64,000 bases of DNA from a virus. Below are positions 11,422 to 32,472 of this stretch, piece after piece; position 1 is the stretch's first letter; every line of letters begins with the position of its first letter. Under the pieces are notes generated by a model. It made no database searches. It was not told the origin of the DNA and worked only from the letters and a program-made list of their open reading frames with translations. The DNA lies in IMG/VR virus record IMGVR_UViG_3300044641_005643. One strand, written 5' to 3'. Both the position numbers and the translations under genes were made by a program.

Positions 11422-11424
11422 AGT

Positions 11425-12429: not shown

Positions 12430-12452
12430 GCTTTTGGCGGCAAATTTTAATT

Positions 12453-12460
12453 CATAAATA
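12453..12460 (+). promoter_or_regulatory. Putative T4-type late promoter (CATAAATA)
   Basis: One mismatch to TATAAATA, intergenic, upstream of a GGAG SD and the tail gene at 12486. Confidence 0.5.
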
Positions 12461-12485
12461 ATAAACAGTTGGAGATTTTTTAAAA

Positions 12486-14150: not shown

Positions 14151-15116
14151 ATGACATACGTGCAAGGTGGTTTAATTGAAGCCCAAGATTATAACAATCT
14201 ATTGGGAGGTAATGCAACATCTAATTCTAATACCTTAGATGCAGTATGGGCATGGGGGAATGGTAGTCGAGGATACGGTCAGGCCAACCTTGCCAATGTT
14301 GCAGTGACAGGCACAGTTACAGCTACAAACTGGGCTTCGCTAATAAACATTTTGAATAGTGCTAACTTACATATTAGGAATACCACATCTGGTTTAACTG
14401 CAAATACTGCAGGACAATTGATTGGACATTCAGGTTTTTTAACTACAGCTATCCAACGACTCAATCAAGATAGGTTACTGTTTGCAACCAATTCCGCGGT
14501 AATTGCCAATCATAATAGTCTAACATCATATCCCGCATGGCAAGTGGCAGATCCACTTGCTACACAAACTGTAACACGTAGTTTTGGTGCTAATGTGGCA
14601 TTTCAGAGTCCTGACAGAGCCAGATTCTTTTTCAACGCCGGCGGTCGTTTGAAGTTCAATGTATCTGCCACCAATAATCTTGGTGCAGGAGTTGCCGGAC
14701 AAAGATCCCAATCTATTGTCAATTTGTTTACCAATTTGGGTGGAGTGGCATTGATTGCAGCTAACACCAATGCTGGCAGAACTGGAGCTGGCGGAACCTT
14801 GGTGACTAATAATACTGCTTTAGGATATTACCAAGCCACAATTGCAAACACAGCTATAGTTTCAGTTACAGGAACTACAGCGGAATACACTACTGACTCG
14901 GCCACTATAACTTATCGTACCAATGGCAGACAAGGGCAACACAACGACAACGGATCTATATTGAGTTTTTGGGTGAACGTAACCAATACCACTGGAACCG
15001 GTACCGGATACAATGACGCAATTGATGTTACGGCAACAGTAACAGTAGATGTTTCCTACCCAGAAGTAACCAATCTCGCCAATACCTGGGGTGCCGTCAC
15101 TGTTACCAGACAGTAA
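14151..15116 (+). CDS. Virion structural protein
   Basis: Thr/Asn/Gly-rich 321-aa ORF (GYGQ, RFFFNAGG motifs) at the end of the tail block; AGGA SD. Confidence 0.55.
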   Translation: MTYVQGGLIEAQDYNNLLGGNATSNSNTLDAVWAWGNGSRGYGQANLANVAVTGTVTATNWASLINILNSANLHIRNTTSGLTANTAGQLIGHSGFLTTAIQRLNQDRLLFATNSAVIANHNSLTSYPAWQVADPLATQTVTRSFGANVAFQSPDRARFFFNAGGRLKFNVSATNNLGAGVAGQRSQSIVNLFTNLGGVALIAANTNAGRTGAGGTLVTNNTALGYYQATIANTAIVSVTGTTAEYTTDSATITYRTNGRQGQHNDNGSILSFWVNVTNTTGTGTGYNDAIDVTATVTVDVSYPEVTNLANTWGAVTVTRQ

Positions 15117-15182
15117 CAAAAAAAATTTACTTTTGTCAATTTTTATTGTAAAATTTAAGTATTTTACCTTTGAAAGAAAATC

Positions 15183-15497
15183 ATGACAGACGTAGATTCA
15201 TTAGTCCAAGAAGTCAAGTTGGCCACTGATTTCCAGATTAACAAAAAAATTCTAAAAGAAAAAATTCAGACTGATTTACATCTGACACACAACGGTGGCA
15301 TGTTCAAAATTACACCAGAGTTGTTGGCTTTTGTTCAAACTTGGCCGGTTGATGAATTATATTTAGAAGATGTTTATGAAAGTCCAATCAAGATTGATCG
15401 GCAAGCTTTTTTAATCACAGCACAACAACATTATCAAACAGTAATGAACAGATGGCATCAAGCATATGCAGAACTCAAACAAATTAGAAAAATCTAG
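15183..15497 (+). CDS. Hypothetical protein
   Basis: 104-aa ORF overlapping the next gene. Confidence 0.6.
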   Translation: MTDVDSLVQEVKLATDFQINKKILKEKIQTDLHLTHNGGMFKITPELLAFVQTWPVDELYLEDVYESPIKIDRQAFLITAQQHYQTVMNRWHQAYAELKQIRKI

Positions 15498-16248
15498 AGG
15501 AATTTTGGCGTTTGCATACAATGTTGATACAATTGATTACGAATCAATTGCATACAAAACTCTTGAAGTTGCAAGTCAAAAATTACAATTGCCCTACACT
15601 CTGATTACAGACAAAGAATTATCAAACCATACAGAAAATATTAGATACAGTATTGATGAACACGCATTTATAAAATGGAGAAATGTTGGCAGATATCATG
15701 CTTTTGAACTTTCACCTTATGATGAGACATTGGTAATTGATGTTGATTATTTAATTTTAGAAAATAATTTAAACAAGATATTTGACTGCGATTGGGATTA
15801 TCTATTACAGAGACACAGTTTTGCTCTCACACAACAATGGCCAAAACTAATGGGTACTTCGAGCTTGCCGTATATATGGGCAACAGTTTTTGCATTTAGA
15901 AAAACTAAAAAATCAAAATTATTTTTTGATCTAGTTGGTAAAATTCAAAGGAATTATTCCTATTATTATTCTTTGTTTAATGTCAATGAAAGAAACTATA
16001 GAAATGACTATGCGTTTTCAATAGCGGACATTATACTTAATGGTTATAACCTAGAAAGTCATACCATTCCAGGAAACATGCTGGCTGTGAACCAAGTCAT
16101 TGATACTATAAAATTATTCAATAACAGTTTAATAATTAAAGATTCTAAAAAATCCTATGTTGTTCCTAAAATGAATTTGCATATAATGAGCAAGGCATAT
16201 TTACAAAGTGACAATTTTGAAACATTCATAAACGAGATACTAGAATGA
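15466..16248 (+). CDS. GT-A-fold glycosyltransferase-like protein
   Basis: ELSPYDETLVIDVD (DxD) motif typical of GT8-like nucleotide-sugar transferases. Confidence 0.6.
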   Translation: MQNSNKLEKSRGILAFAYNVDTIDYESIAYKTLEVASQKLQLPYTLITDKELSNHTENIRYSIDEHAFIKWRNVGRYHAFELSPYDETLVIDVDYLILENNLNKIFDCDWDYLLQRHSFALTQQWPKLMGTSSLPYIWATVFAFRKTKKSKLFFDLVGKIQRNYSYYYSLFNVNERNYRNDYAFSIADIILNGYNLESHTIPGNMLAVNQVIDTIKLFNNSLIIKDSKKSYVVPKMNLHIMSKAYLQSDNFETFINEILE

Positions 16249-17066
16249 ATCATAAAGAACAATTGGGTTTTTTGACAGTGGCATGTAATAATGATATTGA
16301 TTATTTGCAATTGGCTTATGTACAGGCGTTGAATATTAAAAAAACTCAGAAACACAATAAATTTGCAGTGGTGGTAGATAATCATACCAAAAAATTTATC
16401 ACAAAAAAGCACGAACAAATATTTGATTATGTTATCCAGGCACCTGATCACGATTTTGGAAAATTTGGAACTGAAGCATTTTTATTTGAATTAACCCCAT
16501 TCAAAGAAACAATCAAAATTGAAAGCGATTTGTTATTCACAAGAAGTATAGATCATTGGGTTAATGCATTTAGATTACGAGACGTAGTTTTAAGTGTTGG
16601 GTGTAAAAATTATCGGCAAGAAACATCAGACGTAAGATATTATAGAAAAACATTTGATGATAACAATTTGCCAGATGTTTATAATGGTTTGATGTATTTT
16701 AGATTTACGCAGACTGCCAAAAGTTTTTTTGATAAAGTGAAATTAATTTTCGACAATTGGGTTCATATTCAAAGTTGTTTAAGAAATTGTAGAGAAGATA
16801 CTGCCAGTACAGATTTAGTTTTTGCCATAGCCGCAAGAATGATTGGTGAAGAATTATGCACTTTGCCTAGTGCAGATTTTATAAATTTTGTGCATATGAA
16901 ACCTGCTATTAATGAATTTGATCACAGTCTTGTTTTTAAAGAAGTTTTTGTTACTGAATTCAACGAAGGGATGATCAAAATAAACAATATCAATCAATAT
17001 CATCCATTACATTACTATGATAAAAATTTTATTACTCAGGAAATGATTGAATACTATGAACGATAA
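16245..17066 (+). CDS. GT-A-fold glycosyltransferase-like protein (paralog of 15466)
   Basis: ELTPFKETIKIESD, NGLMYF, STD..FA, HMK motifs parallel those of the upstream gene; ATGA overlap. Confidence 0.6.
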   Translation: MNHKEQLGFLTVACNNDIDYLQLAYVQALNIKKTQKHNKFAVVVDNHTKKFITKKHEQIFDYVIQAPDHDFGKFGTEAFLFELTPFKETIKIESDLLFTRSIDHWVNAFRLRDVVLSVGCKNYRQETSDVRYYRKTFDDNNLPDVYNGLMYFRFTQTAKSFFDKVKLIFDNWVHIQSCLRNCREDTASTDLVFAIAARMIGEELCTLPSADFINFVHMKPAINEFDHSLVFKEVFVTEFNEGMIKINNINQYHPLHYYDKNFITQEMIEYYER

Positions 17067-17427
17067 CTTTTGGGATGAAGTTTTTAAACTAGTAGAAGAA
17101 TTTGATGCCCAGCGACCTGTAGTTTGTAAGCAAAATAGGTTATACTATAACAATGATGGCAGTGTAATAGGTTACTATGAGACCAATCATCCTGCGGGTG
17201 ATAATTATATTATTCTAGATGATCCAAACCTATTCTTCAAAAACAACACTCATTTACTAAGAGTTAAAAATAAAAAATTAACCTTGTTAGATGTCAAACG
17301 GCCCAATAAAGTTAGATTGAAACGTGCTAGTTCGGGATTTAGCACAGTTAAAGGGCACTCTGCAATACTATTAGAACAAAACGAAACTTATAATGACGTA
17401 GATTATTATGACTACCAAAACGATTGA
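17047..17427 (+). CDS. Hypothetical protein
   Basis: 126-aa ORF overlapping both neighbours (start may be 17056). Confidence 0.55.
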   Translation: MNTMNDNFWDEVFKLVEEFDAQRPVVCKQNRLYYNNDGSVIGYYETNHPAGDNYIILDDPNLFFKNNTHLLRVKNKKLTLLDVKRPNKVRLKRASSGFSTVKGHSAILLEQNETYNDVDYYDYQND

Positions 17428-18337
17428 TATAGCAGATTTAGATTGTATTTTTTTAACATATGACGAACCTAAAAAAGAAGAGTTTTGGATACGTATTCAA
17501 AACATGGTACCGTGGGCAAAGAGAGTGGATGGCGTTAAAGGATCTGACGCTGCACACAAAGCAGCCGCTGCCGCAAGTGACACAGAAAGATTTGTTCTGA
17601 TTGATGGAGACAACATACCTGATCCTGGATTTTTTAACTTACAACTCCGGCTGGACGAAAGGAATCATGACCATGTTTTTAGATGGAAGGCACGTAACAT
17701 AATAAATGGTTTGCGTTATGGCAATGGCGGTGTAAGTTGCTGGACTCGAGAGTTTGTTTATAACATGCGCACTCACGAAGCAAGCGACGGCACAGAAGAA
17801 ACGGCTGTGGAGTTTTGTTTTAATCCAAAATACACAGCCATGCACAATTGTTATAGTACAACCTATCCTAATGGTAGTGCCAAACAAGCATGGCGTGCTG
17901 GCTTTCGTGAAGGTGTAAAGATGTGTCTTGATCGAGGTCACAAACCTTCCTTACAGGAATTTGAAGAGGGTGTGAATAAAAGAAACTACGATCACTTGTG
18001 TATATGGCAAAGCGTAGGCGCTGATGTGGAAAACGGTTATTGGGCCATGTACGGAGCCAGACTAGGCACATACATGATCATGCTAGAAGGTTGGGATCAT
18101 CATCAAGTACAAGATTTTGACATGTTAGAAAAGTTATGGTCAAGCTTCGGTAAAGAAGATCCTGCGGAAGGATGCGAACAAATTGCAAATTCATTAACTA
18201 CTAGATTAGGATTACCTATTGTCACTTATACCCCAGAACAGAGTCAATTTTTTAAACATCATTATTCAACTGGTCAAAGAAATAGTGAAATCATGATGAC
18301 TGAAATTGATGTTATTCGCAGGATCGAAGGATGGTAA
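17408..18337 (+). CDS. Glycosyltransferase-like protein (DxD)
   Basis: DCIFLTYDEP, GVKG...AH.AAA, VLIDGDN motifs; paralogous to the C-terminal domain of 33600..35423. Confidence 0.55.
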   Translation: MTTKTIDIADLDCIFLTYDEPKKEEFWIRIQNMVPWAKRVDGVKGSDAAHKAAAAASDTERFVLIDGDNIPDPGFFNLQLRLDERNHDHVFRWKARNIINGLRYGNGGVSCWTREFVYNMRTHEASDGTEETAVEFCFNPKYTAMHNCYSTTYPNGSAKQAWRAGFREGVKMCLDRGHKPSLQEFEEGVNKRNYDHLCIWQSVGADVENGYWAMYGARLGTYMIMLEGWDHHQVQDFDMLEKLWSSFGKEDPAEGCEQIANSLTTRLGLPIVTYTPEQSQFFKHHYSTGQRNSEIMMTEIDVIRRIEGW

Positions 18338-19707
18338 GCGATTTTCTATCTGCAGCAGAAAAAATGAAAGACCAATTGGGTCATAGTCTATGCTTGGCCA
18401 AGTGGCAACAGGTCAGTCTGCACCTTCCTACAGGATTGACCAACAGTTGTTATCATCCACCGTTACACGAAATAGATGCTACATTATTAAAGGACAATCC
18501 CAGTGCCTTACACAACACACCATATAAAAAAGAACAGCGTAAGATTATGTTACGTAATGAAAGACCGCAAGAATGTAGCTATTGCTGGACGCAAGAAGAT
18601 TTAGGAAATCTAAGTGACAGACATTACAGATCAGGTGAGCCCTGGGCCGCAGAGCATTTTGAAACAATCACAAATTTGTCGGGCAATGAAGACGCAATTC
18701 CAAGCTATGTGGAGGTCAATTTCAATCATGCTTGCAATCTCAAGTGTTCCTATTGTAGCCCTCAGTTTAGTAGTAGCTGGGATAATGAAATTAGACGTTA
18801 TGGAGGATATCCCACTAGTACTACTCATAATGATCCATCTCATTTTACCGGTCGTAGACGACCTATCCCCACTAGAGAAAACAATCCATATGTTGATGCA
18901 TTCTGGGAGTGGTGGCCAAGTTTATATCCAAAACTGAAACATTTTAGAATGACCGGCGGCGAGCCATTAATGGATCGTAATACCTATCGAGTGTTTGACT
19001 ATGTGTTGGCGTTTCCTAAATCAGATTTGCACATCGATGTCACCAGCAATTTCAGTGTAGAAGAAAAGTTGTGGGATCAATATTTAAATTATGTCAAGCA
19101 ACTATGTAATACAAATATTGAACATTTCATGCAATATGTTAGTTTAGATTCCTGGGGCGAACATGCAGAATACATTAGACATGGTATGGATTTTTGGAAG
19201 GTGGTTAAACGAGTAGATCATTATTTAGAAGAGATTCCTTCTCGTAACAGTTTAACTTTTATAATCACCATGAGTAATTTGAATATATTAGGACTGCGTC
19301 GTTTATTAGAACTGGTTTTAGATTTACGAGACATACACAGCAAAACGTATCAACGAGTTTGGTTTGATACTCCAATCTTGAGACAACCCACTTGGCAAAG
19401 TTTACAAATATTACCGCCGGTGTACACCAAACGATTACAAGATGTAGTTGATTGGATGCAAGCCAATTTGGAAAAACCACAACGCCCATTTCAAGGATTC
19501 AAAGATTACGAAGTGCAAAGAATGCAACGAGTACTAGATTGGATGCAACAAGGTAGCAAATTAGATCAAGAATATGTTACAATACAAAGAGCAGATTTTT
19601 TTAGATTTTTTAACGAACACGACAAACGCAGAGAAACCAACTTTTTAAATACATTCCCAGAAATGCGAGAATTCTGGGACCAGTGTAAATATTACGCCAT
19701 TAACTAA
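18331..19707 (+). CDS. Radical SAM protein with N-terminal twitch/SPASM-like domain (array member 1)
   Basis: CLAKW...CYH...CSYC N-domain; CNLKCSYC; TGGEP. Confidence 0.9.
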   Translation: MVSDFLSAAEKMKDQLGHSLCLAKWQQVSLHLPTGLTNSCYHPPLHEIDATLLKDNPSALHNTPYKKEQRKIMLRNERPQECSYCWTQEDLGNLSDRHYRSGEPWAAEHFETITNLSGNEDAIPSYVEVNFNHACNLKCSYCSPQFSSSWDNEIRRYGGYPTSTTHNDPSHFTGRRRPIPTRENNPYVDAFWEWWPSLYPKLKHFRMTGGEPLMDRNTYRVFDYVLAFPKSDLHIDVTSNFSVEEKLWDQYLNYVKQLCNTNIEHFMQYVSLDSWGEHAEYIRHGMDFWKVVKRVDHYLEEIPSRNSLTFIITMSNLNILGLRRLLELVLDLRDIHSKTYQRVWFDTPILRQPTWQSLQILPPVYTKRLQDVVDWMQANLEKPQRPFQGFKDYEVQRMQRVLDWMQQGSKLDQEYVTIQRADFFRFFNEHDKRRETNFLNTFPEMREFWDQCKYYAIN

Positions 19708-19710
19708 ATT

Positions 19711-20832
19711 ATGTCCGAAACTTTTTGTATAAAACCATGGGAGCATACTTGTATAAGAACTAATGGCAATTTTACACTCTGCTGTTTTAGTTCAGAATTG
19801 GCAAATCATAATATAAAAAGTTCTACTTTAGAGCAATGGTGGAATAGTGATTTTGTTAAAAACGTAAGACAACGGATGCTGGCAGGAGAACGTCCACATG
19901 CTTGTAATGTCTGTTATATACAAGAAGATAATGGAGTAGAAAGTTTTAGAATACGTTCAAATAGAGAATATAAAATTTTTGATGATGCAGTAGAGCACAA
20001 GCTCAAATTACTTAAATATCCAAAAAATCTTCCTGTTAATATAGAGATGCAACTTACAAACCTATGTAATCTTAAGTGTGTAAGTTGTAACGAGAGTGAA
20101 AGCAGCAGCATCCTGCATGAAAACAAAATATTAAAAATAAACTTAGAAAACCAATCGCAGTTTGACATTACTGATAATGAATTACATGTTTTGAAAGAAT
20201 TGTTACACACAGGATTGAGAAAATTGGTATTAAGAGGAGGGGAACCTTTGATTGTACCACAAGTCAAAGCCCTGCTAAAATATGCTGTAGATAATCATTT
20301 AATAGATAATACCATTATAGTGTTAGTTACAAATGGAACTAGATTTAATCAAGAATGGTTTGATATACTTTCAAAAATTAAAAAACTAAAAATACACATG
20401 AGTGTAGATGGTGTAGGCAAGTTAAATGATTATTTGCGATTTGGTAGCAATTGGAATCATGTTGAACAAAATTGTAAATTGATGTCAATGATACCAAATG
20501 TAAATTTTTTTATTCATGCTGCTATTTCAAATATGAATATTTTACATATAGATAAATTGATAGATTGGTGTGCGGAAAACAAATATTATTTAAATTATGA
20601 TTTAATTACTCAACCAGTAGAATTTGAAGTAACAAATTTGCCAGATGAATTAAAAACACTGGCTATAGAACGGTTAAAAAACAAAAAAGAAATGAGCAAT
20701 ATAATTAATAAATTAAAGAATAGTTTGGTTATTCGTAATTGGGAAAAATTTAAAAATACTATAAGCCTAAGAGAACGTGTTAGAAAAAATAGTATAATAG
20801 AAGTGGTACCTGAATTAAAAAATTACTTGTAA
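19711..20832 (+). CDS. Radical SAM protein with N-terminal twitch/SPASM-like domain (member 2, low GC)
   Basis: CIKPW...CC...CNVC; CNLKCVSC; GGEP. Confidence 0.9.
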   Translation: MSETFCIKPWEHTCIRTNGNFTLCCFSSELANHNIKSSTLEQWWNSDFVKNVRQRMLAGERPHACNVCYIQEDNGVESFRIRSNREYKIFDDAVEHKLKLLKYPKNLPVNIEMQLTNLCNLKCVSCNESESSSILHENKILKINLENQSQFDITDNELHVLKELLHTGLRKLVLRGGEPLIVPQVKALLKYAVDNHLIDNTIIVLVTNGTRFNQEWFDILSKIKKLKIHMSVDGVGKLNDYLRFGSNWNHVEQNCKLMSMIPNVNFFIHAAISNMNILHIDKLIDWCAENKYYLNYDLITQPVEFEVTNLPDELKTLAIERLKNKKEMSNIINKLKNSLVIRNWEKFKNTISLRERVRKNSIIEVVPELKNYL

Positions 20833-20838
20833 TTTGTT

Positions 20839-22179
20839 ATGACCGAAACCAATTTAGAATACAAAATTAGAGTCATTGATAGTAAATCAAAATCATTTTG
20901 TGGCGCGAAATGGTACAATGCAACTATATGGTTAGGAAGTGGTATGACAACCAGTTGCCATCATCCATTGCCTCATAAAATTGATCTGGATGACATTAAA
21001 AAAACGCCTTCAGCTTTACACAATACTCAGCAAAAGAAAATAGAGCGCGAACAAATGCAGCGCGGTGAGAAGCCAAAAGGTTGCGAATATTGTTGGAAAA
21101 TAGAGGACATTGGCAGAGATAACATTAGTGATCGGGTCTATAAAACTAAAATTTTTTCTGAAGAGGATTTAAATTATGCATTTAGAACATCAGCCTCAGA
21201 AGATATCAATCTTCGCACTCTTGAAATCAGTTTTGATCGTACTTGTCAGTTTGCTTGCTCTTATTGCAACCCTGCATTCAGCAGTACTTGGGTCAAAGAC
21301 ATTAATACCAATGGGCCTTATGTGGAACTTGAGTCTGACGGTAGGAACCATTTTACTCATAGTCATGATAGTGCTCAGTTGTTTAAATTTGGTCAAGATA
21401 ACCCATACGTCACGGCATTCTTCCAGTGGTGGGAATCAGATCTCCACCGAACCTTAGATGAATTGCGTATAACCGGCGGCGAACCACTCATGTCAGGTTA
21501 TACCTGGCAATTGCTTGATTGGTTTAAGGCCAACAAAGGAAAATCTAAAACCAGACTTGCAATCAACAGTAACCTAGGAACTCAAGTTGATCTCGATCGT
21601 TTATTTTCAAGTGTGGACGCACCCATTGACTTATACACTAGTAATGAAAGCGTCGGCGCTCATGCAGAGTATATTAGAAATGGATTGGCCTGGGACGATT
21701 GGGCTAGTACTGTAGAACTTGTTTGTGATAATTATAGTGGAAACAAATTGCGTGGCCTACACATAATGTGCACCATTAATGCTCTATGTTTAGAAAGTCT
21801 TACAGAGTTTTTAGATTTTATTGTTGATTGCAAAATGTGTTATGGAAAAAACTTTCCTAGCTTTACACTTAATATCTTACGATTTCCTTCTTTTCAAAGT
21901 CCTTTGATATTACCAGATGATATCAAAACTAAGTATAAATTAAACTTAGAAAAATGGTTAAGTTCGAATAATACAGAGTGGTTGCATGAACACGAAGTTA
22001 ATCACCTACAAAGACTAATTGATTATCTTGACGTAGTGAAAACGCCTCATGCTAATTCTGCTGAACAAATAATTTTACAAAAAGATTTTAAAAAATTTTA
22101 CGCTCAGTACGATCAACGAAGAAATAAAAATTTTTGCACCACGTTTACGGGTTTAGCAGATTGGTATAAAAGTATATGA
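20839..22179 (+). CDS. Radical SAM protein with N-terminal twitch/SPASM-like domain (member 3)
   Basis: CGAKW...CHH...CEYC; CQFACSYC; TGGEP; closest in motifs to member 1. Confidence 0.9.
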   Translation: MTETNLEYKIRVIDSKSKSFCGAKWYNATIWLGSGMTTSCHHPLPHKIDLDDIKKTPSALHNTQQKKIEREQMQRGEKPKGCEYCWKIEDIGRDNISDRVYKTKIFSEEDLNYAFRTSASEDINLRTLEISFDRTCQFACSYCNPAFSSTWVKDINTNGPYVELESDGRNHFTHSHDSAQLFKFGQDNPYVTAFFQWWESDLHRTLDELRITGGEPLMSGYTWQLLDWFKANKGKSKTRLAINSNLGTQVDLDRLFSSVDAPIDLYTSNESVGAHAEYIRNGLAWDDWASTVELVCDNYSGNKLRGLHIMCTINALCLESLTEFLDFIVDCKMCYGKNFPSFTLNILRFPSFQSPLILPDDIKTKYKLNLEKWLSSNNTEWLHEHEVNHLQRLIDYLDVVKTPHANSAEQIILQKDFKKFYAQYDQRRNKNFCTTFTGLADWYKSI

Positions 22180-23615
22180 ATAAATTAAACAAAACAGCTT
22201 ATGAATCTCTTGCTGGGGAAAATTGGCCAACTTATGAAGATTATTTAGAAGACAAAATTAATGACAACATTATCCGTTTAGAATTGAAACATCTCGAAAA
22301 AGAATCAGCAGAAATAAACAGAGGGTACGATTATAATTCTTTGAAGCCATTATATATAAATTTTAATGAATTGTCTGCTGATCAAAAATACAAATTGACT
22401 GAAAGTAAAACATTTTGTATGATGCCGTGGGTGCATATGCATGGTTTTCCGGACGGTCGTGCATATGTTTGTTGTTTTAGTGATTATTGGCATCCCGTTG
22501 GTGATTTTAGAAAAAATACCATGAAGGAAATTTGGAATTCAGATGGATACAAAGCACTTCGAAAAAATATGATAAATGACCAGCAATCAAAGGAATGTTC
22601 AAAATGTTACGAACAGGAAAAAAATGGATTTTTTAGTTTGCGAAATGATGCAAACAAAACTTATGGTCATCATATTAATGATATTCAAAAAACTAACGAA
22701 TCTGGAAATCATCCGGAATTTAAAATCAGGTATTGGGACGTAAGATTTAGTAATCTCTGTAATTTTAGTTGTAGATCGTGTGGGCCGGTGTTCAGTTCAA
22801 ATTGGTTTAATGATCATGTTAAACTTTACAATAGAAAACCAGATGTTCTTGGAAGGGAGATGTTAAGAGTAGAATACATTGCCGGTGACGAAGATGCAAT
22901 GATAGAACAAATGCTACCACACATTCCATATCTTGAACAAGTATATTTTGCCGGCGGCGAACCACTAATAATGAAAGAACATTATTTTTTATTGGAAAAA
23001 CTATTAGAACATGGGAAAACAGATATCCGTATTTTATATAACACAAATTTTAGTGAATTAAGATATAAAGATAAACACGTATTTGATTATTGGAAACACT
23101 TTAAAAATGTAGGAGTAGGTGCAAGTCTGGATGCTAGTGGTGCCAGAGGAGAACTGATGCGTAAAGGACAAAATTGGAAACAAACTTTAGAAAATCGTAA
23201 GTTGATGATTGAACAAGTGCCTCATGTTAATTTTTATATTAGTGCAACTTTAAGTGCAATGAATATTCTTCACATACTTGATTTTCATAAAGAATGGGTA
23301 GAGTTGGGCTTGATTGAACCAAAGGATTTTAACGTTAATATTTGTCAAAGTCCTGAATGGTATAGAATAGATATACTTCCAGAAGATTTTAAAAACAATG
23401 TTGTTATTCCTGCCTTTGAAAAACATATTGCTTGGTTGCAACCACATGATAAATTAGAACGTGCTACTAATGGATACAAAGCCGCTCTTAATTTTATTGC
23501 AGCAAATGATAACAGTCATTTGCTTCCTACATTTATCCAAGAAGTTGAAAAATTAGACTATGTTCGTAAAGAAAATTTTTGGAATACATTTTCTGAATTG
23601 CAATTTTTAAAATGA
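22176..23615 (+). CDS. Radical SAM protein with N-terminal twitch/SPASM-like domain (member 4)
   Basis: CMMPW...CC...CSKC; CNFSCRSC; AGGEP. Confidence 0.9.
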   Translation: MNKLNKTAYESLAGENWPTYEDYLEDKINDNIIRLELKHLEKESAEINRGYDYNSLKPLYINFNELSADQKYKLTESKTFCMMPWVHMHGFPDGRAYVCCFSDYWHPVGDFRKNTMKEIWNSDGYKALRKNMINDQQSKECSKCYEQEKNGFFSLRNDANKTYGHHINDIQKTNESGNHPEFKIRYWDVRFSNLCNFSCRSCGPVFSSNWFNDHVKLYNRKPDVLGREMLRVEYIAGDEDAMIEQMLPHIPYLEQVYFAGGEPLIMKEHYFLLEKLLEHGKTDIRILYNTNFSELRYKDKHVFDYWKHFKNVGVGASLDASGARGELMRKGQNWKQTLENRKLMIEQVPHVNFYISATLSAMNILHILDFHKEWVELGLIEPKDFNVNICQSPEWYRIDILPEDFKNNVVIPAFEKHIAWLQPHDKLERATNGYKAALNFIAANDNSHLLPTFIQEVEKLDYVRKENFWNTFSELQFLK

Positions 23616-24823
23616 ATTTACCAAGTACAATATGTATGTTACCTTGGATTAGCATAGAAACTAGTCCAATTGGCACTGCTAGACCCTGTTGTCTGGCTAG
23701 AGAAGAAATTACCAATAATGAAGGTGTCAAATTTGATCTCAATCAAGATAATCTGGAAACTATATACAACAGTGATTACATGCAAAAATTACGCAAGCAG
23801 TTTCGTGCAGGTCAAAAACCAGAAACATGCAAGTTATGTTGGGACGAGGAAGCTGCAGGAAGAACAAGTAAACGTATCAATAGTAGAATTAGATTAAAAG
23901 AATTATATTCAGAGGTTGATTGGGAAAATGATAAACCAAATCAACTTTGGTTCTTAGATCTCAAGCTAGGAAACATTTGCAATTTAAAATGCCGTATATG
24001 CGGATCCTGGTCTAGTAGTAAATGGGCTGCAGAAGAACTAGATTACATTCCAAAAAGTGCTGACAAAAAACAACATATTGCTTATCAATGGTTAAAACAA
24101 GGAGCATGGCCTCGGAATCAAGATACAAATTTTTGGAACAATTTAAAAGAATTGTTGCCTAATATTAAATATCTGGAATTTACCGGCGGAGAACCGTTCC
24201 TCATCCAGGAACATTTTGATTTGCTAAAATTTGCAGTTGATAATGGATATAGCAAAAATATAGATATCCATTACAATACAAATGGCACAGTAGATCCGGA
24301 CGAATCTCACTTATGGCAACATTTTGGTCGTGTTGATATTGCGTTTAGCATTGATAATGTTGGTAAGCGTTTTGAATACGAACGATATGGCGCTAAATGG
24401 GAAGAAGTAAACGATAACATTATATGGATTAGTTCCTACAAACAACATAACAACAACATTACTACTCAACTTTGCTTAACTGTGAATATACAAAATGTGT
24501 ATTATTTAGATGAATTATTAGCCTGGGCAGATAGTAAACCGTTTGATAACATTTATTTCAATATGATGCACAGCCCAGATCATATGAATATACAGCACAT
24601 GACCCCAGCCGCAAAGGAATTAGTTTTGAATAAACTAAAAACAACATTTTGGACTGCTAAACATTACCAACGTGAAATAGATAATATTATAAAATTTATA
24701 GAATTAGGTACAGGTAGCGATGGCGCAGAATTTTTACAAAGAATGAAACAAACGGATCTTTATAGAAATCAAAATTTTTCTGATACTCACCCAGAAATAG
24801 CACGAGCGATGGGTTATGATTAA
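23612..24823 (+). CDS. Radical SAM protein with N-terminal twitch/SPASM-like domain (member 5)
   Basis: CMLPW...CC...CKLC; CNLKCRIC; TGGEP. Confidence 0.9.
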   Translation: MNLPSTICMLPWISIETSPIGTARPCCLAREEITNNEGVKFDLNQDNLETIYNSDYMQKLRKQFRAGQKPETCKLCWDEEAAGRTSKRINSRIRLKELYSEVDWENDKPNQLWFLDLKLGNICNLKCRICGSWSSSKWAAEELDYIPKSADKKQHIAYQWLKQGAWPRNQDTNFWNNLKELLPNIKYLEFTGGEPFLIQEHFDLLKFAVDNGYSKNIDIHYNTNGTVDPDESHLWQHFGRVDIAFSIDNVGKRFEYERYGAKWEEVNDNIIWISSYKQHNNNITTQLCLTVNIQNVYYLDELLAWADSKPFDNIYFNMMHSPDHMNIQHMTPAAKELVLNKLKTTFWTAKHYQREIDNIIKFIELGTGSDGAEFLQRMKQTDLYRNQNFSDTHPEIARAMGYD

Positions 24824-26091
24824 TGCAAAATTTAAAGTTAATTACAGACGAAAAAATTTATAGAACATGGAAAGGTGCAGATTGGCCCTCTTATGATGAT
24901 TTTGTTAATCAGAATTACATAGTAAGTGACACTATACAAAAAGAAATAGAAAACTTTATAGATGTCATTTCAAAAAAATACAAAGATTTAACTGAGGCAA
25001 GAACTGAAGAATTATCTATAGCAAATCAAAAAAGACAAGGTCAAATATTTTTTAATAAAAAATACAAAGGGAATACCTATTGCAGGATACCATGGGATAC
25101 CATTGGTATTAATGCAAATGGGAATGTTTATATTTGTCAAAGCCCGTCCTGGGTGCCAATTTTTGTAGGTAACATTCTAGAGACAAATGATATATTTGAA
25201 ATTTTAAATTCAGAAATAGCTAGGAAAATTAGATTTCAAATTCTTAATAAGACATACCACTATTGTAATAGTACAATATGCAGTTATTTTCAAAAAATAG
25301 ATAAAAATAGATATGAAACATTTCCTACTAACAAGGAAGATTTAGTCAAAAAAGATTTTGTTGATTCTCCAGAATTATACCTTGCTAATATACCTAAAGA
25401 AATTATTTTTGATTTTGACTACACATGTAATCTTAAATGTCCCAGTTGCAGAACAGAAAATATTAATTGGAATAATGATTACGTAATCAGACCAACAAAC
25501 AATAAGATAGTAAAAAAAATTAAAGAATTAATAATAGATAAAATAGATAATAGTTTGACTACTATTCGTTGGTGCGGAGGGGAACCTTTCATGAGCGAAG
25601 TTTATTTAGATCTACTCGATTACATATCGAATAGTAATAAAACTAATATACAGAATGTAATACAAACAAATGGAAGTTTGTTTCAAGCAAAAGAAAAGTT
25701 AGTTTTAAAATTATTACCTTATATTTCTACACTTCGTATTAGTTATGATGCTGGATGCGAAGAAACTTATAAATTAACAAGAGTTGGCGGAGATTGGAAA
25801 AGACTTTTAGAAAATACAAATTTTGTTTTAACGCTCATTAAAGACAATAATTTTAGAACTTCTGTTCAAGCAGATTTTGTAGTTCAAAAAAATAATTATA
25901 AAGATATTCCTGAATTTATTAGTATTTGTAAAAATTTTAATATTACTCCCAATTTACAAAAAATGTGGAATTGGGGCACATGGGATGATGAGATTTTTGA
26001 AGAACAAAATATTTATAACGTGAATCATTCTTTATATAACAATTTAAAACAAATTTTTGAAATAGTCAATATACCTATTGCAAAAAATTAA
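24823..26091 (+). CDS. Radical SAM protein with N-terminal Cys-rich domain (member 6, low GC)
   Basis: CRIPW...C...CNSTIC; CNLKCPSC; GGEP. Confidence 0.88.
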   Translation: MQNLKLITDEKIYRTWKGADWPSYDDFVNQNYIVSDTIQKEIENFIDVISKKYKDLTEARTEELSIANQKRQGQIFFNKKYKGNTYCRIPWDTIGINANGNVYICQSPSWVPIFVGNILETNDIFEILNSEIARKIRFQILNKTYHYCNSTICSYFQKIDKNRYETFPTNKEDLVKKDFVDSPELYLANIPKEIIFDFDYTCNLKCPSCRTENINWNNDYVIRPTNNKIVKKIKELIIDKIDNSLTTIRWCGGEPFMSEVYLDLLDYISNSNKTNIQNVIQTNGSLFQAKEKLVLKLLPYISTLRISYDAGCEETYKLTRVGGDWKRLLENTNFVLTLIKDNNFRTSVQADFVVQKNNYKDIPEFISICKNFNITPNLQKMWNWGTWDDEIFEEQNIYNVNHSLYNNLKQIFEIVNIPIAKN

Positions 26092-26092
26092 T

Positions 26093-27388
26093 ATGAATAG
26101 ACCTGAAACACTTTGCATGGCACCCTGGACTCATACGTATCTTAGCCCACAAACAGAAAGGCGGATGTGCTGCGCTAGTCGCGAACCCGCACAAAACTTC
26201 GAACAGTATATTGATACAAAATCAGGCACAGGGCGATATATTCCTATTACGTTAGAAGAACATTGGAATGGGGAACATATGCGTTCAGTTCGCAGACGTA
26301 TGTTATCTGGAGAAATATTACCTGAATGTGAAGTTTGTAATAATAAGCTGTTAAATACAGACATTTACCGCAGTTATTTTAATTCTCTATTTGGACATAA
26401 GTACAAGCAAGTACTAGAACATACTGATGCGAGTGGTTATACTACTATGAAGCCGATCAGTTGGGACTACCGGTTCAGTAACTTATGTAATTTCAAATGC
26501 CGTATGTGCGGCGACATGTTGTCTAGTAGTTGGGAAAGTGAGCAACGACAAAACAACATGATCAATTGGTCAAATCCAAAGAACAATTGGATGCAACCTG
26601 AAATCAAGAAACAAATTGAACAGTTCCAGACTACTCAGATTGAAGCCGAGTTTGCAGCAGCAGTAGAGGACCACCGTGTAGAGGAAGTGTATTGGGTGGG
26701 AGGAGAACCGTTAATGTACGAACAACATTGGCGGTACATGCAGCGAATTATAGAACTGGGAGATGGACCACGTGTTTATGCTAGATACAATACTAATCTT
26801 AGCCGCATTGATTTTAGAGGTTGTAATCTTTATAGCGATATACTTGCTCATCTGCGCGACTGGCAAATCTGCGCAAGTATTGATGGTACAGGCCGAATTG
26901 GAGAATATATCCGAACAGGCCTTGATTATGAAACGTGGCTTGCAAACTTTAAGGCAGGAGTTGCATTTGCTCGCCACCGGCGACAAATGAGATTGGACTT
27001 CACACTTACCCTTCCGGGTATGTTTGAAGTGATCAAAATACAACGGTTAGCCAAGGAGTTAGGCGTTGATGTATTGGCCAAGGTTGTGTTTAGTTTTAGC
27101 CCGGACATAGTTATGTCACCTTTGGCTCTGCCTAGATCCGTTTTAGATTCCTGGCTAAATGAATTAATAGCCCAGATTGAAACAGGCACACTCAAAAACA
27201 TGTTAGTTCAACTCAAAACACGCCCTACCTTTCAAGAACAATATGGTAAGGATGCTTATTTTGAAGGGGTTGCTCGAGGCAAGTCTCGTATGTTACAATT
27301 AGAATCTATTCGTAGTCAATCTATAACTATGGATGAAATACTATCAAAGAGAGCTGATGTATATGAGTGGTGGACGGCCATCAATTAA
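26093..27388 (+). CDS. Radical SAM protein with N-terminal twitch/SPASM-like domain (member 7)
   Basis: CMAPW...CC...CEVC; CNFKCRMC; GGEP; ATG at 26093 preferred to the TTG at 26078. Confidence 0.9.
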   Translation: MNRPETLCMAPWTHTYLSPQTERRMCCASREPAQNFEQYIDTKSGTGRYIPITLEEHWNGEHMRSVRRRMLSGEILPECEVCNNKLLNTDIYRSYFNSLFGHKYKQVLEHTDASGYTTMKPISWDYRFSNLCNFKCRMCGDMLSSSWESEQRQNNMINWSNPKNNWMQPEIKKQIEQFQTTQIEAEFAAAVEDHRVEEVYWVGGEPLMYEQHWRYMQRIIELGDGPRVYARYNTNLSRIDFRGCNLYSDILAHLRDWQICASIDGTGRIGEYIRTGLDYETWLANFKAGVAFARHRRQMRLDFTLTLPGMFEVIKIQRLAKELGVDVLAKVVFSFSPDIVMSPLALPRSVLDSWLNELIAQIETGTLKNMLVQLKTRPTFQEQYGKDAYFEGVARGKSRMLQLESIRSQSITMDEILSKRADVYEWWTAIN

Positions 27389-28457
27389 AGTTGTACTTCG
27401 AAATCCTTTAAATTATAATGATAAAATTGATTACAATATATTACCTCACGACAACAGCCTTGCTCAAGATTGGATTGATGCCTTAAAACAGTTATTGAGA
27501 AATAAAAATTTAATAGAAAAAGATTTTTGTTTTTTAGGTTTTCCACATACAGCTCGTACCACTGAATATCTATGTAATGAACTTAATCAGGCAGTAAGCA
27601 CTATTAACAATTTTTTTAGTGATTATAAAATACACGATTACTTTACTCCAGATAATGTTTTGGCATATGATTATGCGCCAAATGGTCCTAATCATGAATT
27701 GTTAAATCAATTACATAATCATTTTGAAATACTACAAGGAACAGTATGGGAATTGAGTGATTACTATATTAGGGGAGATTACGAAACCAAATATGCTATC
27801 AGACAACTTAACACACTGTGTCACGAATTAGAATCCTTAATTTTAAGCAAAAGAAAATTTGCCACAATACCACAATGGGTAAGACCCAGTCAAATAACCA
27901 CTTTTATAAATGCCGCTCGATACGATTTAAAATTTACACATAGACAACTGTTTGCTATTAATGGATATGATAGAGTGTTAGGTGGAGTTTATATGCATTG
28001 GTCGCAAATTGGTAAAACATTATTTGAAGTATTTAGAGATGAAAATGCACCAGACCTAACAGAAACGGTGTGCCAAAGTATCACTGAATTAAAATATTAC
28101 AGTGGTGAATTTGACGTTGAATGGGGTAATAGTGTTGTTTATGGCAACAAAGATGTTTCGTGGCATACAGAAGAACAAAACAATTTTAGAGAGTGGTTGA
28201 GCAAGAATGGCAGAGATTATAAAGATGTTTCATTGAGTTGTGGTTATTTGCCAATTGGTCAAGTTGATTTACAAGGCAGTTTTGGTAACACAGATGGCGA
28301 AACAATATGGAAAATATTAGGCAATTATTTAGACATCTACAGCGTAGAAGTTGATGGTGTGACCAATATATTTGATTACAGTTGGGCCGATGCTGATTAT
28401 AAACAGATACAAATTAATAGGATGAAACCAGGATATGATTATAGTAGCCGGCGGTGA
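27333..28457 (+). CDS. Hypothetical protein
   Basis: 374-aa ORF (start possibly 27357 or 27363); LNQLHNHFE and LNTLCHELE His motifs. Confidence 0.6.
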   Translation: MKYYQRELMYMSGGRPSIKVVLRNPLNYNDKIDYNILPHDNSLAQDWIDALKQLLRNKNLIEKDFCFLGFPHTARTTEYLCNELNQAVSTINNFFSDYKIHDYFTPDNVLAYDYAPNGPNHELLNQLHNHFEILQGTVWELSDYYIRGDYETKYAIRQLNTLCHELESLILSKRKFATIPQWVRPSQITTFINAARYDLKFTHRQLFAINGYDRVLGGVYMHWSQIGKTLFEVFRDENAPDLTETVCQSITELKYYSGEFDVEWGNSVVYGNKDVSWHTEEQNNFREWLSKNGRDYKDVSLSCGYLPIGQVDLQGSFGNTDGETIWKILGNYLDIYSVEVDGVTNIFDYSWADADYKQIQINRMKPGYDYSSRR

Positions 28458-29274
28458 TAGTTTTGTATTTGGATCAGAATTAAAAGATCAATTTGGTATA
28501 GAGCCGAGTAAATTCACTTATCCTGCTTTATTAGCAAAGGAATGTAATTTTGAGTATAGGTGCATAGCCCGGCCAGGTAGCGCAAATAATGCTATTAGTA
28601 GATTAATAATTTCCGAGTGCGAAAAAATAAAAGAAAATAATATTGGCGTTATTGTAACTTGGACTTTTACACACCGTTACGAATTTAGATTTAATTACGA
28701 TACTCAACAAAGATACAGTCCTTGGTATAGCATAAACTCTTGGGTTACACTTGACGATCATGGTGAGATCTTGGACGAGTACCGCACTAAGAATTTATCT
28801 GAGTTAGAAATGCAAAAATCCTATTTTGAGCGAGCAAAAAAAATAGGAATATCTGATTTTGCAAAAACTTTTTATAAACATGTGGGTGCTAGCGAATATT
28901 ACGAATTATATACAAGTCTTAGAGAGATATTGTTCTTACAATTGTATTTTGAACAAAATAACATTCCTTATTTGTTTTTGCCAGCAGACAATCATTTTTT
29001 TGATCATCCAAATTATTATAGACAACGAGATGAGTATATAGATAGTTTATACAAACAAATAAAATGGAACCATTGGTTCTTTTTTGAATCAGGTACTCAA
29101 GCAAATGAAACTAAAGAACCAAGAGGTTTTTATCAATGGGCAATAGAAAATAAATATCCGGTAGGAGTAACACATCCGTTAGAAGCAGCTCATGCCGATG
29201 CTGCAAAATTAATTAAGGAAAAATTCAATGAACTGGTTAAAAAACCTTTGGAACAGAATTCAATTAGAAATTAA
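28435..29274 (+). CDS. SGNH/GDSL-like hydrolase or acyltransferase
   Basis: N-terminal GDSF, PGSANN block, C-terminal HP...H. Confidence 0.6.
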   Translation: MIIVAGGDSFVFGSELKDQFGIEPSKFTYPALLAKECNFEYRCIARPGSANNAISRLIISECEKIKENNIGVIVTWTFTHRYEFRFNYDTQQRYSPWYSINSWVTLDDHGEILDEYRTKNLSELEMQKSYFERAKKIGISDFAKTFYKHVGASEYYELYTSLREILFLQLYFEQNNIPYLFLPADNHFFDHPNYYRQRDEYIDSLYKQIKWNHWFFFESGTQANETKEPRGFYQWAIENKYPVGVTHPLEAAHADAAKLIKEKFNELVKKPLEQNSIRN

Positions 29275-29329
29275 ATATAGACGAAAACTACGAGAATTAC
29301 GTAAACGAGATCCTTTTATCTATAAATGA
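29228..29329 (+). CDS. 33-aa basic peptide MNWLKNLWNRIQLEIKYRRKLRELRKRDPFIYK (below ORF-track cutoff)
   Basis: Translated by hand; its TGA overlaps the ATG of 29326 (ATGA coupling) and it bridges the gap between two genes. Confidence 0.65.
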   Translation: MNWLKNLWNRIQLEIKYRRKLRELRKRDPFIYK

Positions 29330-29973
29330 TTTATGCAATAGGAGACAGTTTCACATACGGTGATGAATTGTCATCACAGGATTTGGCTTGGCCGGCTTTG
29401 TTATCAAAAAAATTAGGTAATCAAGTTATTAATAAAGGCCGATCTGCTACTGGAAATCATCGCATGGTCAAACGAGCATTAGATGCGGTAATCAATAATG
29501 CCAACTGTATTATTATTGGTTGGAGCAACTGTAATAGACAAGAGTTTGCAGATGATATAGGAATTTATGATATATGGCCCGGAAGAGACTATAGAGCATT
29601 TCAGCTCGATGATCCCACACATCGTATTACTCAAATAAAGTATATGACAGCCTACCACACGCCAAAATATTATTATGCCAATTGGCTAAGACAGATTATT
29701 CTAATACAGAATTTGTGTAAATCAAATAGTATACCTTGTGTCATGTTTATTGCTTGCGGTGCGCATAATGATCACAAAAGTTATTCTAGTGAATTTCCTA
29801 AACTTGTAAATGCAATCGATCATTCTGTTTTTGTTGACAATATGTTCACAAGTGTTGCAGAATGGACCTGGGGCACACCACATGGACCTAACGATCATCC
29901 TTTAGAAGCCGGGCACGAAATAATAGCGCAAAAAATTTATGAACATATTAGGAATAAGTGCCGGATTCCATGA
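29326..29973 (+). CDS. SGNH/GDSL-like protein
   Basis: GDSFTYG, ATGN, GWS, C-terminal DHP..GH. Confidence 0.6.
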   Translation: MIYAIGDSFTYGDELSSQDLAWPALLSKKLGNQVINKGRSATGNHRMVKRALDAVINNANCIIIGWSNCNRQEFADDIGIYDIWPGRDYRAFQLDDPTHRITQIKYMTAYHTPKYYYANWLRQIILIQNLCKSNSIPCVMFIACGAHNDHKSYSSEFPKLVNAIDHSVFVDNMFTSVAEWTWGTPHGPNDHPLEAGHEIIAQKIYEHIRNKCRIP

Positions 29974-31417: not shown

Positions 31418-31845
31418 CAACTAGAATACTTATAATGGGGTTACCAGGTGCAGGAAAGACTACATTGGCCCTTAACTTACTCAATTACTTTAGTCCTGAT
31501 GTTCTTTGGCTTAATGCAGACGAAATTAGAAGAAAGTTTAATGATTGGGATTTTAGCTATAAAGGAAGAATTCGTCAAAGTCGGCGTATGCGAGAAATAG
31601 CAGATGTGTCAAATAGAGATTACATTATTGCAGATTTTGTTTGCCCACTTGAAGAAATGCGTGAAATCTTTGATCCTGATTTTCTAATATGGGTCGATAC
31701 AATCTCAGAAGGAAGATTTGAAGATACTAATCGAGCATTTGTACCACCTGATCAGTATGATGTTAGAGTAACAGAACAAGATGCAGATAAATGGGCAAAA
31801 ATAATTTATGAACAAATATCACATAAGATTCAATCACGAACATAA
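31414..31845 (+). CDS. Adenylyl-sulfate (APS) kinase-like P-loop kinase
   Basis: GLPGAGKTT Walker A; NAD..R...DWDFS..GR.RQ; DFVCP; short (143 aa). Confidence 0.7.
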   Translation: MTTRILIMGLPGAGKTTLALNLLNYFSPDVLWLNADEIRRKFNDWDFSYKGRIRQSRRMREIADVSNRDYIIADFVCPLEEMREIFDPDFLIWVDTISEGRFEDTNRAFVPPDQYDVRVTEQDADKWAKIIYEQISHKIQSRT

Positions 31846-32028: not shown

Positions 32029-32472
32029 ATGAAAGAAAAATTTAAACAGGCATACATGCAAACTGCACAAACTTTTGCAGAATTAAGTCACGCTCGTAGA
32101 TTAAAAGTGGGCTGTATTATAGTCAAGGATGATAGGATAATCAGTATTGGTTACAACGGAATGCCAGCCGGCTGGGATAACAACTGCGAACACGAAATGA
32201 AATGGCCCAACGGCGAGATTAGATTTTTACAGACCAAAGAAGAAGTGTTGCATGCAGAATCAAATGCGATTGCTAAATTGGCCCGTTCTGTAGAAAGCGG
32301 AGAAGGTGCAAGTTTATTTGTAACGCATAGTCCTTGTTTGGATTGTGCTAAACTTATCTATCAGGCAGGAATTAAAAATGTGTATTATCTAAACGATTAT
32401 AGAGATGATACCGGTATTCAATTTTTAATCAAATCTACAATACAAGTTGAGAAAATGCAGAATCAAGATTAA
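32029..32472 (+). CDS. dCMP deaminase
   Basis: VGC.IV...IISIGYNG, HAE.NA, PCxxC zinc motifs. Confidence 0.92.
   Translation: MKEKFKQAYMQTAQTFAELSHARRLKVGCIIVKDDRIISIGYNGMPAGWDNNCEHEMKWPNGEIRFLQTKEEVLHAESNAIAKLARSVESGEGASLFVTHSPCLDCAKLIYQAGIKNVYYLNDYRDDTGIQFLIKSTIQVEKMQNQD

Follow-up and report, generated by a model that had tools for sequence, protein, structure and literature searches.

The 64,000-nt stretch analysed here (the window; IMG/VR record IMGVR_UViG_3300044641_005643) comes from an uncultured giant phage and carries seven consecutive genes for radical S-adenosylmethionine (SAM) enzymes on its plus strand. The seven open reading frames (ORFs; 373-479 aa) span positions 18331-27388, abut or overlap with junctions of -14 to +6 nt (Table 1), and sit precisely where an initial annotation of this DNA had placed a tandem array. 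All seven match the Pfam model Radical_SAM (member 3 weakly, E 1.3e-3), and members 1-5 and 7 exceed the curated 170-bit cut-off of the NCBIfam family NF033640 (N_Twi_rSAM, 'twitch domain-containing radical SAM protein'; hereafter N_Twi), below which member 6 falls. Because the E-values range from 1e-29 to 1e-117 across seven neighbouring genes, chance is excluded. Members 2 and 6 have the lowest guanine-plus-cytosine (GC) content (28.7% and 26.4%, against 32-41% in the remaining members), as the initial annotation had also remarked. In member 7, an in-frame Met lies five codons downstream of the listed start. Three more radical SAM ORFs lie on the minus strand; the count of ten radical SAM proteins given earlier for the window thus stands, although the presumed QueE is supported as a radical SAM domain only. 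The other two fall outside the N_Twi family, and the one at 55973-57001, inside the sugar/7-deazaguanine region, shows a faint C-terminal SPASM match (E 0.0097), which corresponds to the ordinary domain order.

In the canonical SPASM/twitch subfamily (Haft & Basu, 2011; Grell et al, 2015), the auxiliary-cluster domain is said to lie C-terminal to the core. The seven phage proteins depart from this placement, as the twitch domain precedes the core in every member (within residues 6-149). Pfam matches the complete SPASM model PF13186 ahead of the core in members 2, 4, 5, 6 and 7; examples are member 2 (SPASM at residues 6-68, Radical_SAM at 114-286), member 4 (E 3.8e-12, residues 81-145) and the divergent member 6 (SPASM E 8.9e-9, Radical_SAM E 8.4e-11). 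Furthermore, the residues at the N-terminus of members 4 and 5 align with the SPASM regions that the tungsten-cofactor maturase, StsB and AlbA carry at their C-termini. On the strength of these alignments, we take the N-terminal domain to be a true twitch/SPASM homologue in a permuted position, as had been proposed.

All seven proteins share a twitch pattern of a cysteine, 9-15 residues (about 12), a glycine, four residues, a second cysteine and, after a gap, a CxxC pair, all ahead of the CxxxCxxC core. In an alignment of the seven, twitch residues C21, C82 and C85, core residues C135, C139 and C142 and the GGEP motif are invariant (member 1 numbering), and the fourth twitch cysteine, located in the hairpin, is present in each protein. 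The cysteine-rich N-domain, core motif and GGEP read from the DNA by the initial annotation are therefore intact in all seven, with four plus three cysteines each. The SSxW signature that was described as usually following the core motif occurs in five members (not in members 2 and 6), and alignment and tree both support the assignment of members 1 and 3 to one subtype, with CxxKW and C(Y/H)HP common to the two. In a 135-sequence family alignment, the invariant cysteines are C8, C73, C123, C127 and C130; two more, C27 and C76, are kept in at least 90% of the sequences. Neither this alignment nor that of the seven members contains a conserved second cysteine group (CxxCx5Cx3C, final C) after the CxxC pair, and the domain is therefore a one-cluster twitch and not a full SPASM. 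From these ligands, each enzyme is predicted to coordinate two [4Fe-4S] clusters, a SAM-cleaving one at CxxxCxxC and an auxiliary one in the twitch domain, and all seven genes are predicted to encode active radical SAM enzymes.

The six members above the cut-off match NF033640 over its full length (282-392 bits) and share its order of twitch, CxxxCxxC core and helical C-terminal part. The permuted twitch is thus not new as an observation, since the family was already catalogued, a point that the initial annotation had missed; NF033640 has no assigned function. We found no paper on this family, its tandem arrays or its function, and no tested member. None of the seven proteins falls into a characterised family with an unrelated function; the viperin family NF038283 (cut-off 180 bits) is approached most closely by member 6, at 44 bits. 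Most bacterial NF033640 members are single genes, unlike the seven in tandem here.

We modelled member 5 with AlphaFold2 on the 135-row family alignment and compared the model with solved structures using Foldseek and VIA-align. The confident model (predicted local distance difference test, pLDDT, 95.8; predicted template modelling score, pTM, 0.92) consists of an N-terminal hairpin-plus-helices module, a partial TIM barrel and a C-terminal helical domain. Neither program found a close solved relative. BlsE is the top VIA-align match (Z 12.7), with SkfB (Z 12.2), anSME (Z 12.0) and viperin (Z 11.9) within one Z unit and an aligned range restricted to the core. Foldseek returned CteB (E 1e-7, TM 0.35), and further fold matches are ChlB, MoaA and QueE. 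All of these matches cover the generic radical SAM core only (TM 0.35-0.41 in sequential alignments), because the auxiliary domain is N-terminal instead of C-terminal. The phage enzymes thus share the cysteine pattern and the partial TIM-barrel core with canonical twitch/SPASM enzymes such as BtrN, BlsE, MoaA, anSME and SkfB (fold Z 11-12.7), but differ from them in the N-terminal position of the auxiliary domain and in the extra C-terminal helical domain.

For a comparison across phages, we retrieved 70 IMG/VR viral loci with member 4, many of them on contigs of 200-518 kb, searched them with a hidden Markov model (HMM) built from the seven members, and counted proteins of at least 45% identity as orthologues. 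At least four family genes are present in 64 of the 70 loci, and three loci carry up to 10-12. Related phages thus have 4-12 copies; this comparison of copy number, which the initial annotation had suggested, agrees with its description of an expandable array. All five core members (1, 3, 4, 5 and 7) occur in 37 loci, every time in the order 1-3-4-5-7 and with median identities of 66-75%; individually, orthologues were found in 40 loci for member 1, 46 for member 3 and 44 for member 7 (median identity 75%). Member 2 has no orthologue at this threshold in the 70 loci, and member 6 has orthologues in only four. Both form long branches in a FastTree phylogeny of 99 family members and, being patchy and low in GC as well, fit the earlier suggestion that they are later additions. 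In the same tree, each core member forms its own clade (support 99-100) with one orthologue per related phage. Members 1 and 3 lie within a clade of 27 rows, all of them from phages in this sample, and bacterial proteins nest near member 4, the closest to them, and near members 2 and 5.

Paralogues among the seven are only 20-33% identical, and the duplications are therefore old and the copies maintained. On these comparisons, the array is not a recent amplification: its five core members represent old, distinct orthologue groups in a fixed gene order. Such a fixed five-enzyme core with swappable extras argues for distinct roles over gene dosage. The family also extends well beyond these loci, with 5621 metagenomic relatives of member 4 at E <= 1e-10 among 8000 candidates scored; a near-identity DNA search against GenBank phages found none close.

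The gene after member 7 encodes a 374-aa protein (family c2) that is closely associated with the radical SAM enzymes. In 41 of 44 phage loci, a member of this family lies directly against an N_Twi gene; the family also occurs in Bacteriovoracaceae loci and has 669 representatives at E <= 1e-3. In the metagenomic protein P0270, c2 is fused ahead of a complete N_Twi enzyme (272 bits with the seven-member HMM). Judging by this linkage, the 374-aa protein likely works together with the radical SAM enzymes. Its confident model (pLDDT 92.9) has no match among solved structures in Foldseek, and a profile search against the sequences of solved structures was not significant; VIA-align returned only cyclophilin-like barrels (Z 8-9.7). 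The barrel is interrupted by a helical bundle (residues 70-180) that bears the conserved residues H128, E132, N160, H164 and E167, and H128, N160, H164, G217 and K228 are invariant in the family. A complex prediction of member 7 with the 374-aa protein scored 0.00 and gave no answer, neither for nor against binding. In addition, c2 forms the C-terminal half of 712-775-aa proteins (P0194, P0199, P0201, P0210, P0216, P0225 and P0229), whose N-terminal halves of ~390 aa match neither the families of the window nor Pfam.

The array is embedded in a block (12465-35420) whose synteny is kept in 25-45 loci. From the 104-aa gene through the kinase (15183-31845), the genes of the block form an overlapping string with junctions of -56 to +6 nt and one exception of +51 nt. 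This spacing predicts that the seven enzymes are translated from one tightly packed operon together with the glycosyltransferase (GT)-like, SGNH, carbamoyltransferase and kinase genes. Scans for sigma-70 promoters and terminators stayed at chance level, and the T4 late-promoter word TATAAATA occurs three times, against 7.9 expected by chance, with none at the operon head. The tail-fibre-like gene directly upstream of the operon keeps this place in 24-28 loci. Several genes of the block may encode glycosyltransferases. The profile of the GT8-like family matches glycogenin-1 (E 6.8e-4), with glycogenins accounting for 19 of the 20 among the matches listed; its hhalign comparison with Pfam-verified GT2 proteins was not significant. 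The 309-aa protein is the most conserved gene of the block, and the ESM Atlas clusters closest to it bear the name 'Glycosyltransferase 2-like', no more than a lead. A profile search of this protein against solved-structure sequences and hhalign against Pfam-verified GT2 proteins were both not significant, and because of the latter result the GT-A call also stays a lead. An orthologue of the 607-aa protein in another phage (L058:10121-11890) is 25% identical to the 309-aa putative GT-A.

Downstream, the carbamoyltransferase is found in 43 loci and also follows the 11-12-copy arrays of two of the phages (L059 and L062). Proteins of family c1 abut an N_Twi gene in 35 of 53 loci and match no Pfam, PHROG or solved-structure sequence; from motif resemblance, c1 may be a glycosyltransferase. 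The c1 protein of the window had been pulled into a radical SAM cluster by single linkage and was rejected as a member, as it is not a radical SAM protein. Genes for a dCMP deaminase, found in 18 loci only, and a thymidylate synthase lie just downstream as well. PHROG matches in the window are to tail-fibre proteins, thymidylate synthase, an exonuclease and an ATPase, the last sharing 50% identity with its counterpart in Pseudomonas phage PA5oct (287 kb). Ahead of the tail-fibre-like genes, an ORF of >3200 aa (1-9606) runs off the 5' end of the window; its sole Pfam match is one FG-GAP repeat, and it may encode a giant virion protein.

Table 1. Radical SAM genes of the window and genes surrounding the array
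Feature	Position	Strand	Remarks
Tail-fibre-like protein, chaperone/autoproteolysis-like C-terminal part	12486..14141	+	PHROG tail fibre 8e-5, virion structural protein 1.4e-6; Peptidase_G2 IMC 7e-4
321-aa Asn/Thr/Gly-rich protein	14151..15116	+	Behind fibre gene; homologues in 32 loci; no family match (Pfam, PHROG)
104-aa conserved protein	15183..15497	+	Head of overlapping run; 36 loci including distant L047; no family match (PHROG)
GT8-like glycosyltransferase, first of paralogous pair	15466..16248	+	In 39 loci; no direct Pfam match
GT8-like glycosyltransferase, second of pair	16245..17066	+	Same family cluster as 15466-16248
126-aa conserved protein	17047..17427	+	Between GT8-like pair and putative GT-A; 37 loci; no family match (PHROG)
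309-aa protein, DGD motif, putative GT-A glycosyltransferase	17408..18337	+	92.6% identical to counterpart in locus L013
Member 1	18331..19707	+	458 aa; core orthologue group; CxxKW / CYHP subtype; NF033640 325 bits
Member 2	19711..20832	+	373 aa; accessory copy, minimal architecture; NF033640 297 bits
Member 3	20839..22179	+	446 aa; core group, member 1 subtype; NF033640 292 bits
Member 4	22176..23615	+	479 aa; core group; ~75 extra N-terminal residues; NF033640 392 bits
Member 5	23612..24823	+	403 aa; core group; modelled member; NF033640 349 bits
Member 6	24823..26091	+	422 aa; divergent accessory copy; NF033640 101 bits
Member 7	26078..27388	+	436 aa; core group; TTG start as listed; NF033640 282 bits
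374-aa protein, family c2	27333..28457	+	After member 7; no Pfam, NCBIfam or PHROG match
SGNH/GDSL-like protein	28435..29274	+	N-terminal GDS motif; clusters with 29326-29973, family in 49 loci; no Pfam match of its own
SGNH/GDSL hydrolase-like protein (DUF6071)	29326..29973	+	DUF6071 E 6.5e-10; Lipase_GDSL E 8.3e-5
Carbamoyltransferase, NodU/CmcH/TobZ type	29939..31417	+	Carbam_trans_C E 6e-47, Carbam_trans_N E 1e-38
Small P-loop kinase, APS-kinase-like	31414..31845	+	APS_kinase E 4.3e-7, N-terminal half of model only
388-aa protein, family c1	32435..33601	-	Paralogues interspersed in arrays of other phages
607-aa protein	33600..35423	+	In 24 loci; one loose cluster with 309-aa protein
Radical SAM protein outside N_Twi family	46709..47779	-	
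QueE candidate	49980..50828	-	
Radical SAM protein outside N_Twi family	55973..57001	-	

Distant phage clades retain both the arrays and the carbamoyltransferase. To these they add a UDP-glucose/GDP-mannose dehydrogenase inside the array (9e-19), GT7 transferases (4e-17), a short-chain dehydrogenase/reductase (SDR) and two further radical SAM proteins, one of them B12-binding and the other plain. One of them (L047) includes a 796-aa family member with an extra part (7612-9999) and, embedded in the array, a 764-aa B12-binding radical SAM protein (11103-13394); the B12 protein recurs in 17 loci. Cultured carriers are the Vibrio phages K566 (L150) and K567 and the Ralstonia phage RsoM2USA. Phage K566 has four clustered N_Twi-like genes; the fourth (14457-15728, minus strand; VPHK566_0308; 86 bits with the seven-member HMM) is annotated as 'hypothetical protein' and lies beside three annotated ones. 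Six loci from metagenome-assembled genomes labelled Legionellales, Porticoccaceae, Flavobacterium, Rickettsiales and Haliscomenobacter (L071-L076) contain 4-6 family genes that are 44-50% identical to member 4, and in four of the six they have neighbours of the phage type, drawn from the 374-aa family, the putative GT-A and the GT8-like pair. These are probably phage contigs misbinned into bacterial genomes.

In bacteria, family members are mostly single-copy, and glycosyltransferases recur beside them, though their company varies. The commonest neighbour is an exporter with transmembrane and nucleotide-binding domains (23 of 73 loci). On an 859-kb Bacteriovoracaceae contig (L103), an N_Twi gene is followed by a c2 relative and then by an ABC-2 permease and ATPase, and a second N_Twi copy faces two PMT_2 (GT-C) transferases. 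Beside the N_Twi/ABC-2 cluster of this contig, a 174-aa ORF (4604-5125) with a Peptidase_S74 (endosialidase chaperone) domain echoes the fibre-chaperone-like C-terminus encoded upstream of the phage operon. In Anderseniella (L126), an ABC exporter, N_Twi and PqqD (E 2e-14) are accompanied by two GT2 genes, a nucleotidyltransferase and DUF6625, and in another locus (L129) a GT2 gene directly follows N_Twi. In Paenibacillus (L108), the neighbours are an acyl carrier protein (ACP), two ketosynthases, a ketoreductase, an acyl-AMP ligase and a GT2. A single member lies in such a run, with a carrier protein, an FabG-like reductase, two ketosynthases, an acyl-AMP ligase and a GT2, in both L108 and L113, and the run looks like a glycolipid or polyketide-type cluster. 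Finally, a shorter subfamily of Flavobacteriales is found among hemB, hemE, hemL and ChaN. This branch (~350 aa; L121, L123, L130, L139, L142, L144, L145 and L148, from Flavobacteriales/Vicingaceae) has a hemL-like class-III aminotransferase among its neighbours and may be a subfamily connected with tetrapyrroles.

We give about an even chance to the explanation that the seven enzymes tailor the sugars of a phage-made glycoconjugate stepwise, probably on the virion. From the observed enzymes, their ligands, age, order and gene company, we infer the substrate class, the acceptor and every chemical step of the following scheme. The transferases would assemble a chain of sugars on an acceptor, for which a virion protein, for instance the fibres, is the most plausible candidate. 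The radical SAM enzymes would then each abstract hydrogen from a different unactivated sugar carbon, and the distinct edit so achieved would be an epimerisation, an oxidation, a dehydration or deoxygenation, a decarboxylation, or the formation of a C-C bond. Decoration with acyl, carbamoyl and phosphate (or sulfate) groups would follow, and the 374-aa protein would work physically with the enzymes.

Several observations are consistent with this scheme. They include the intact ligands, the confident model, the one-to-one orthologues, which indicate distinct roles, and the placement in one operon. Sugar genes accompany them in the window (the GT8-like pair, the carbamoyltransferase, the SGNH protein and the APS-kinase-like kinase), in the distant arrays (dehydrogenase, GT7, SDR and B12 radical SAM protein) and in bacteria (L103, L126, L129 and L108), and the genes directly upstream, in conserved synteny, match tail-fibre PHROGs. 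BlsE, the solved structure that matches best, has a glucuronic-acid nucleoside as its substrate; this is a weak pointer, as peptide maturases tie with it. The initial annotation had named a virion glycan, structural proteins or a peptide as possible substrates, and among these the gene company now points to a glycan or glycoconjugate beside tail-fibre genes.

Other observations weigh against this explanation. Its support is guilt by association, and we found no NF033640 member with a known substrate. The glycosyltransferase calls in the window are weak (E 7e-4 for GT8, not significant for the 309-aa protein, no match for c1), and the operon itself contains no nucleotide-sugar synthesis gene, flippase or polymerase. 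Some of the bacterial company is of a different kind, namely PqqD in L126, the ACP, ketosynthases and acyl-AMP ligase of Paenibacillus, and haem synthesis in Flavobacteriales. In addition, the cyclophilin-like barrel of the partner protein is a fold known above all for peptide binding, and the nearest sequence families are mostly peptide maturases. A broader version of the sugar-tailoring explanation strikes us as possible rather than probable: large uncultured phages would build heavily edited virion sugars with a modular, expandable N-terminal-twitch set, a radical chemistry new for glycans, together with a new cyclophilin-like His/Glu-insert partner that is fused to the enzyme in some genomes, and the coat would be diversified, in an arms race with the host, as copies are gained and lost.

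The last points lead to the strongest alternative, which we nevertheless consider unlikely, namely that the enzymes modify amino-acid residues and introduce cross-links or D-residues into tail fibres, another virion protein or a small exported peptide. The 374-aa protein would then be the substrate-recognition subunit, and the transferases would glycosylate the same polypeptide. The closest families outside NF033640 are the peptide maturases SkfB, PapB, MftC, DynA and AlbA, and the structural ties include SkfB, anSME, CteB and ChlB. The order of ABC exporter, N_Twi, PqqD and GT2 genes in L126 and the frequency of exporters in bacteria would suit an exported peptide, and the fibre genes directly upstream would suit a virion protein. 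The cyclophilin-like partner fits as well: in P0270 it occupies the N-terminal place at which maturases of RiPPs (peptides made by the ribosome and modified after translation) carry their peptide-recognition domains. However, Pfam, NCBIfam and PHROG scans detected no PqqD or RiPP recognition element (RRE) in the proteins of the phage operon, and no candidate precursor turned up, short ORFs not having been searched for precursors. No candidate substrate protein is common to all array-carrying phage clades. Peptide systems, to our knowledge, rarely need 5-12 different radical SAM enzymes, and the copy number here is far above that of RiPP clusters. Moreover, the partner barrel is cyclophilin-like and not a winged helix, and the UDP-sugar dehydrogenase and SDR inside the arrays fit sugar chemistry more easily.

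Two further explanations appear to us quite improbable, and to a similar degree. According to one, the array would serve nucleotide or DNA hypermodification, acting on nucleotides or on DNA-attached sugars and protecting the genome against host nucleases. In favour of this possibility are the radical SAM and sugar genes of the 7-deazaguanine region on the opposite strand of the window, genes for a kinase, a dCMP deaminase and a thymidylate synthase just downstream, and fold matches to the nucleotide- or nucleoside-acting viperin, MoaA, QueE and BlsE. The operon, however, runs in the direction of the tail-fibre genes, as their continuation, and not in that of the minus-strand nucleotide-metabolism genes; the dCMP deaminase has a narrow distribution; and the bacterial relatives lie beside polysaccharide exporters and membrane GT-C transferases, not DNA enzymes. 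According to the other, the operon would make a diffusible or membrane small molecule (a glycolipid, an aminoglycoside-like compound or another secondary metabolite) that alters the infected cell or its surface and not the virion. The Paenibacillus neighbourhood and the common bacterial exporters would agree with such a product, and TobZ/NodU-type carbamoyltransferases decorate aminoglycosides and Nod factors. Yet the phage block contains no carrier protein, ketosynthase, exporter or lipid gene, and its conserved place behind structural genes better fits a virion product. A last possibility is that the majority of the copies are redundant or in decay and have no function of their own, as the divergent, low-GC and patchy members 2 and 6 might suggest. 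It is very unlikely, and in practice excluded, in view of the complete cluster ligands and GGEP of all seven members, the identity and fixed order of the core members in 37 loci, and the old, maintained duplications.

Radical SAM enzymes carry out some of biology's hardest reactions, and in a family with thousands of environmental members and no assigned reaction it is the chemistry that is of interest. A fixed five-enzyme set, expandable to 12, that recurs in many large aquatic phages points to abundant uncharted chemistry, probably on the surface of the virus particle. Such a virion structure could have an influence on how hosts are recognised, on the evasion of defences or on the stability of the particle, and the tightly linked partner and the cultured carriers (K566/K567 and RsoM2USA) make the question testable at the bench.

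Large numbers of radical SAM genes in a phage have been reported before, in a T4-like environmental viral genome with 12 of them (Nishimura et al, 2017, mSphere, PMC5332604). There, the genes are given only as Fe-S-related, with no family, tandem order, orthology or context. Virion glycosylation by phage-encoded glycosyltransferases, with glycans on virion proteins, is described for mycobacteriophages (Freeman et al, 2023, as cited in PMC12619734). Like the putative glycosyltransferase genes of the locus studied here, those of the mycobacteriophage systems adjoin structural genes (PMC12619734). The mycobacteriophage systems, as cited in that source, are without radical SAM enzymes, and virion glycosylation in the present phage is a prediction. 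RiPP maturases, in turn, are the nearest sequence families to the N_Twi enzymes, which resemble them further in the PqqD and ABC exporter beside one bacterial relative and in a partner that is sometimes fused N-terminally.

We also noted that several alternative-frame ORFs within the radical SAM genes appear 'conserved' across loci (18614-18934, 21173-21454, both plus strand; 18634-18921, 26714-27046 and 26929-27207, all minus strand). Most simply, these are shadows of the strongly conserved coding frames.

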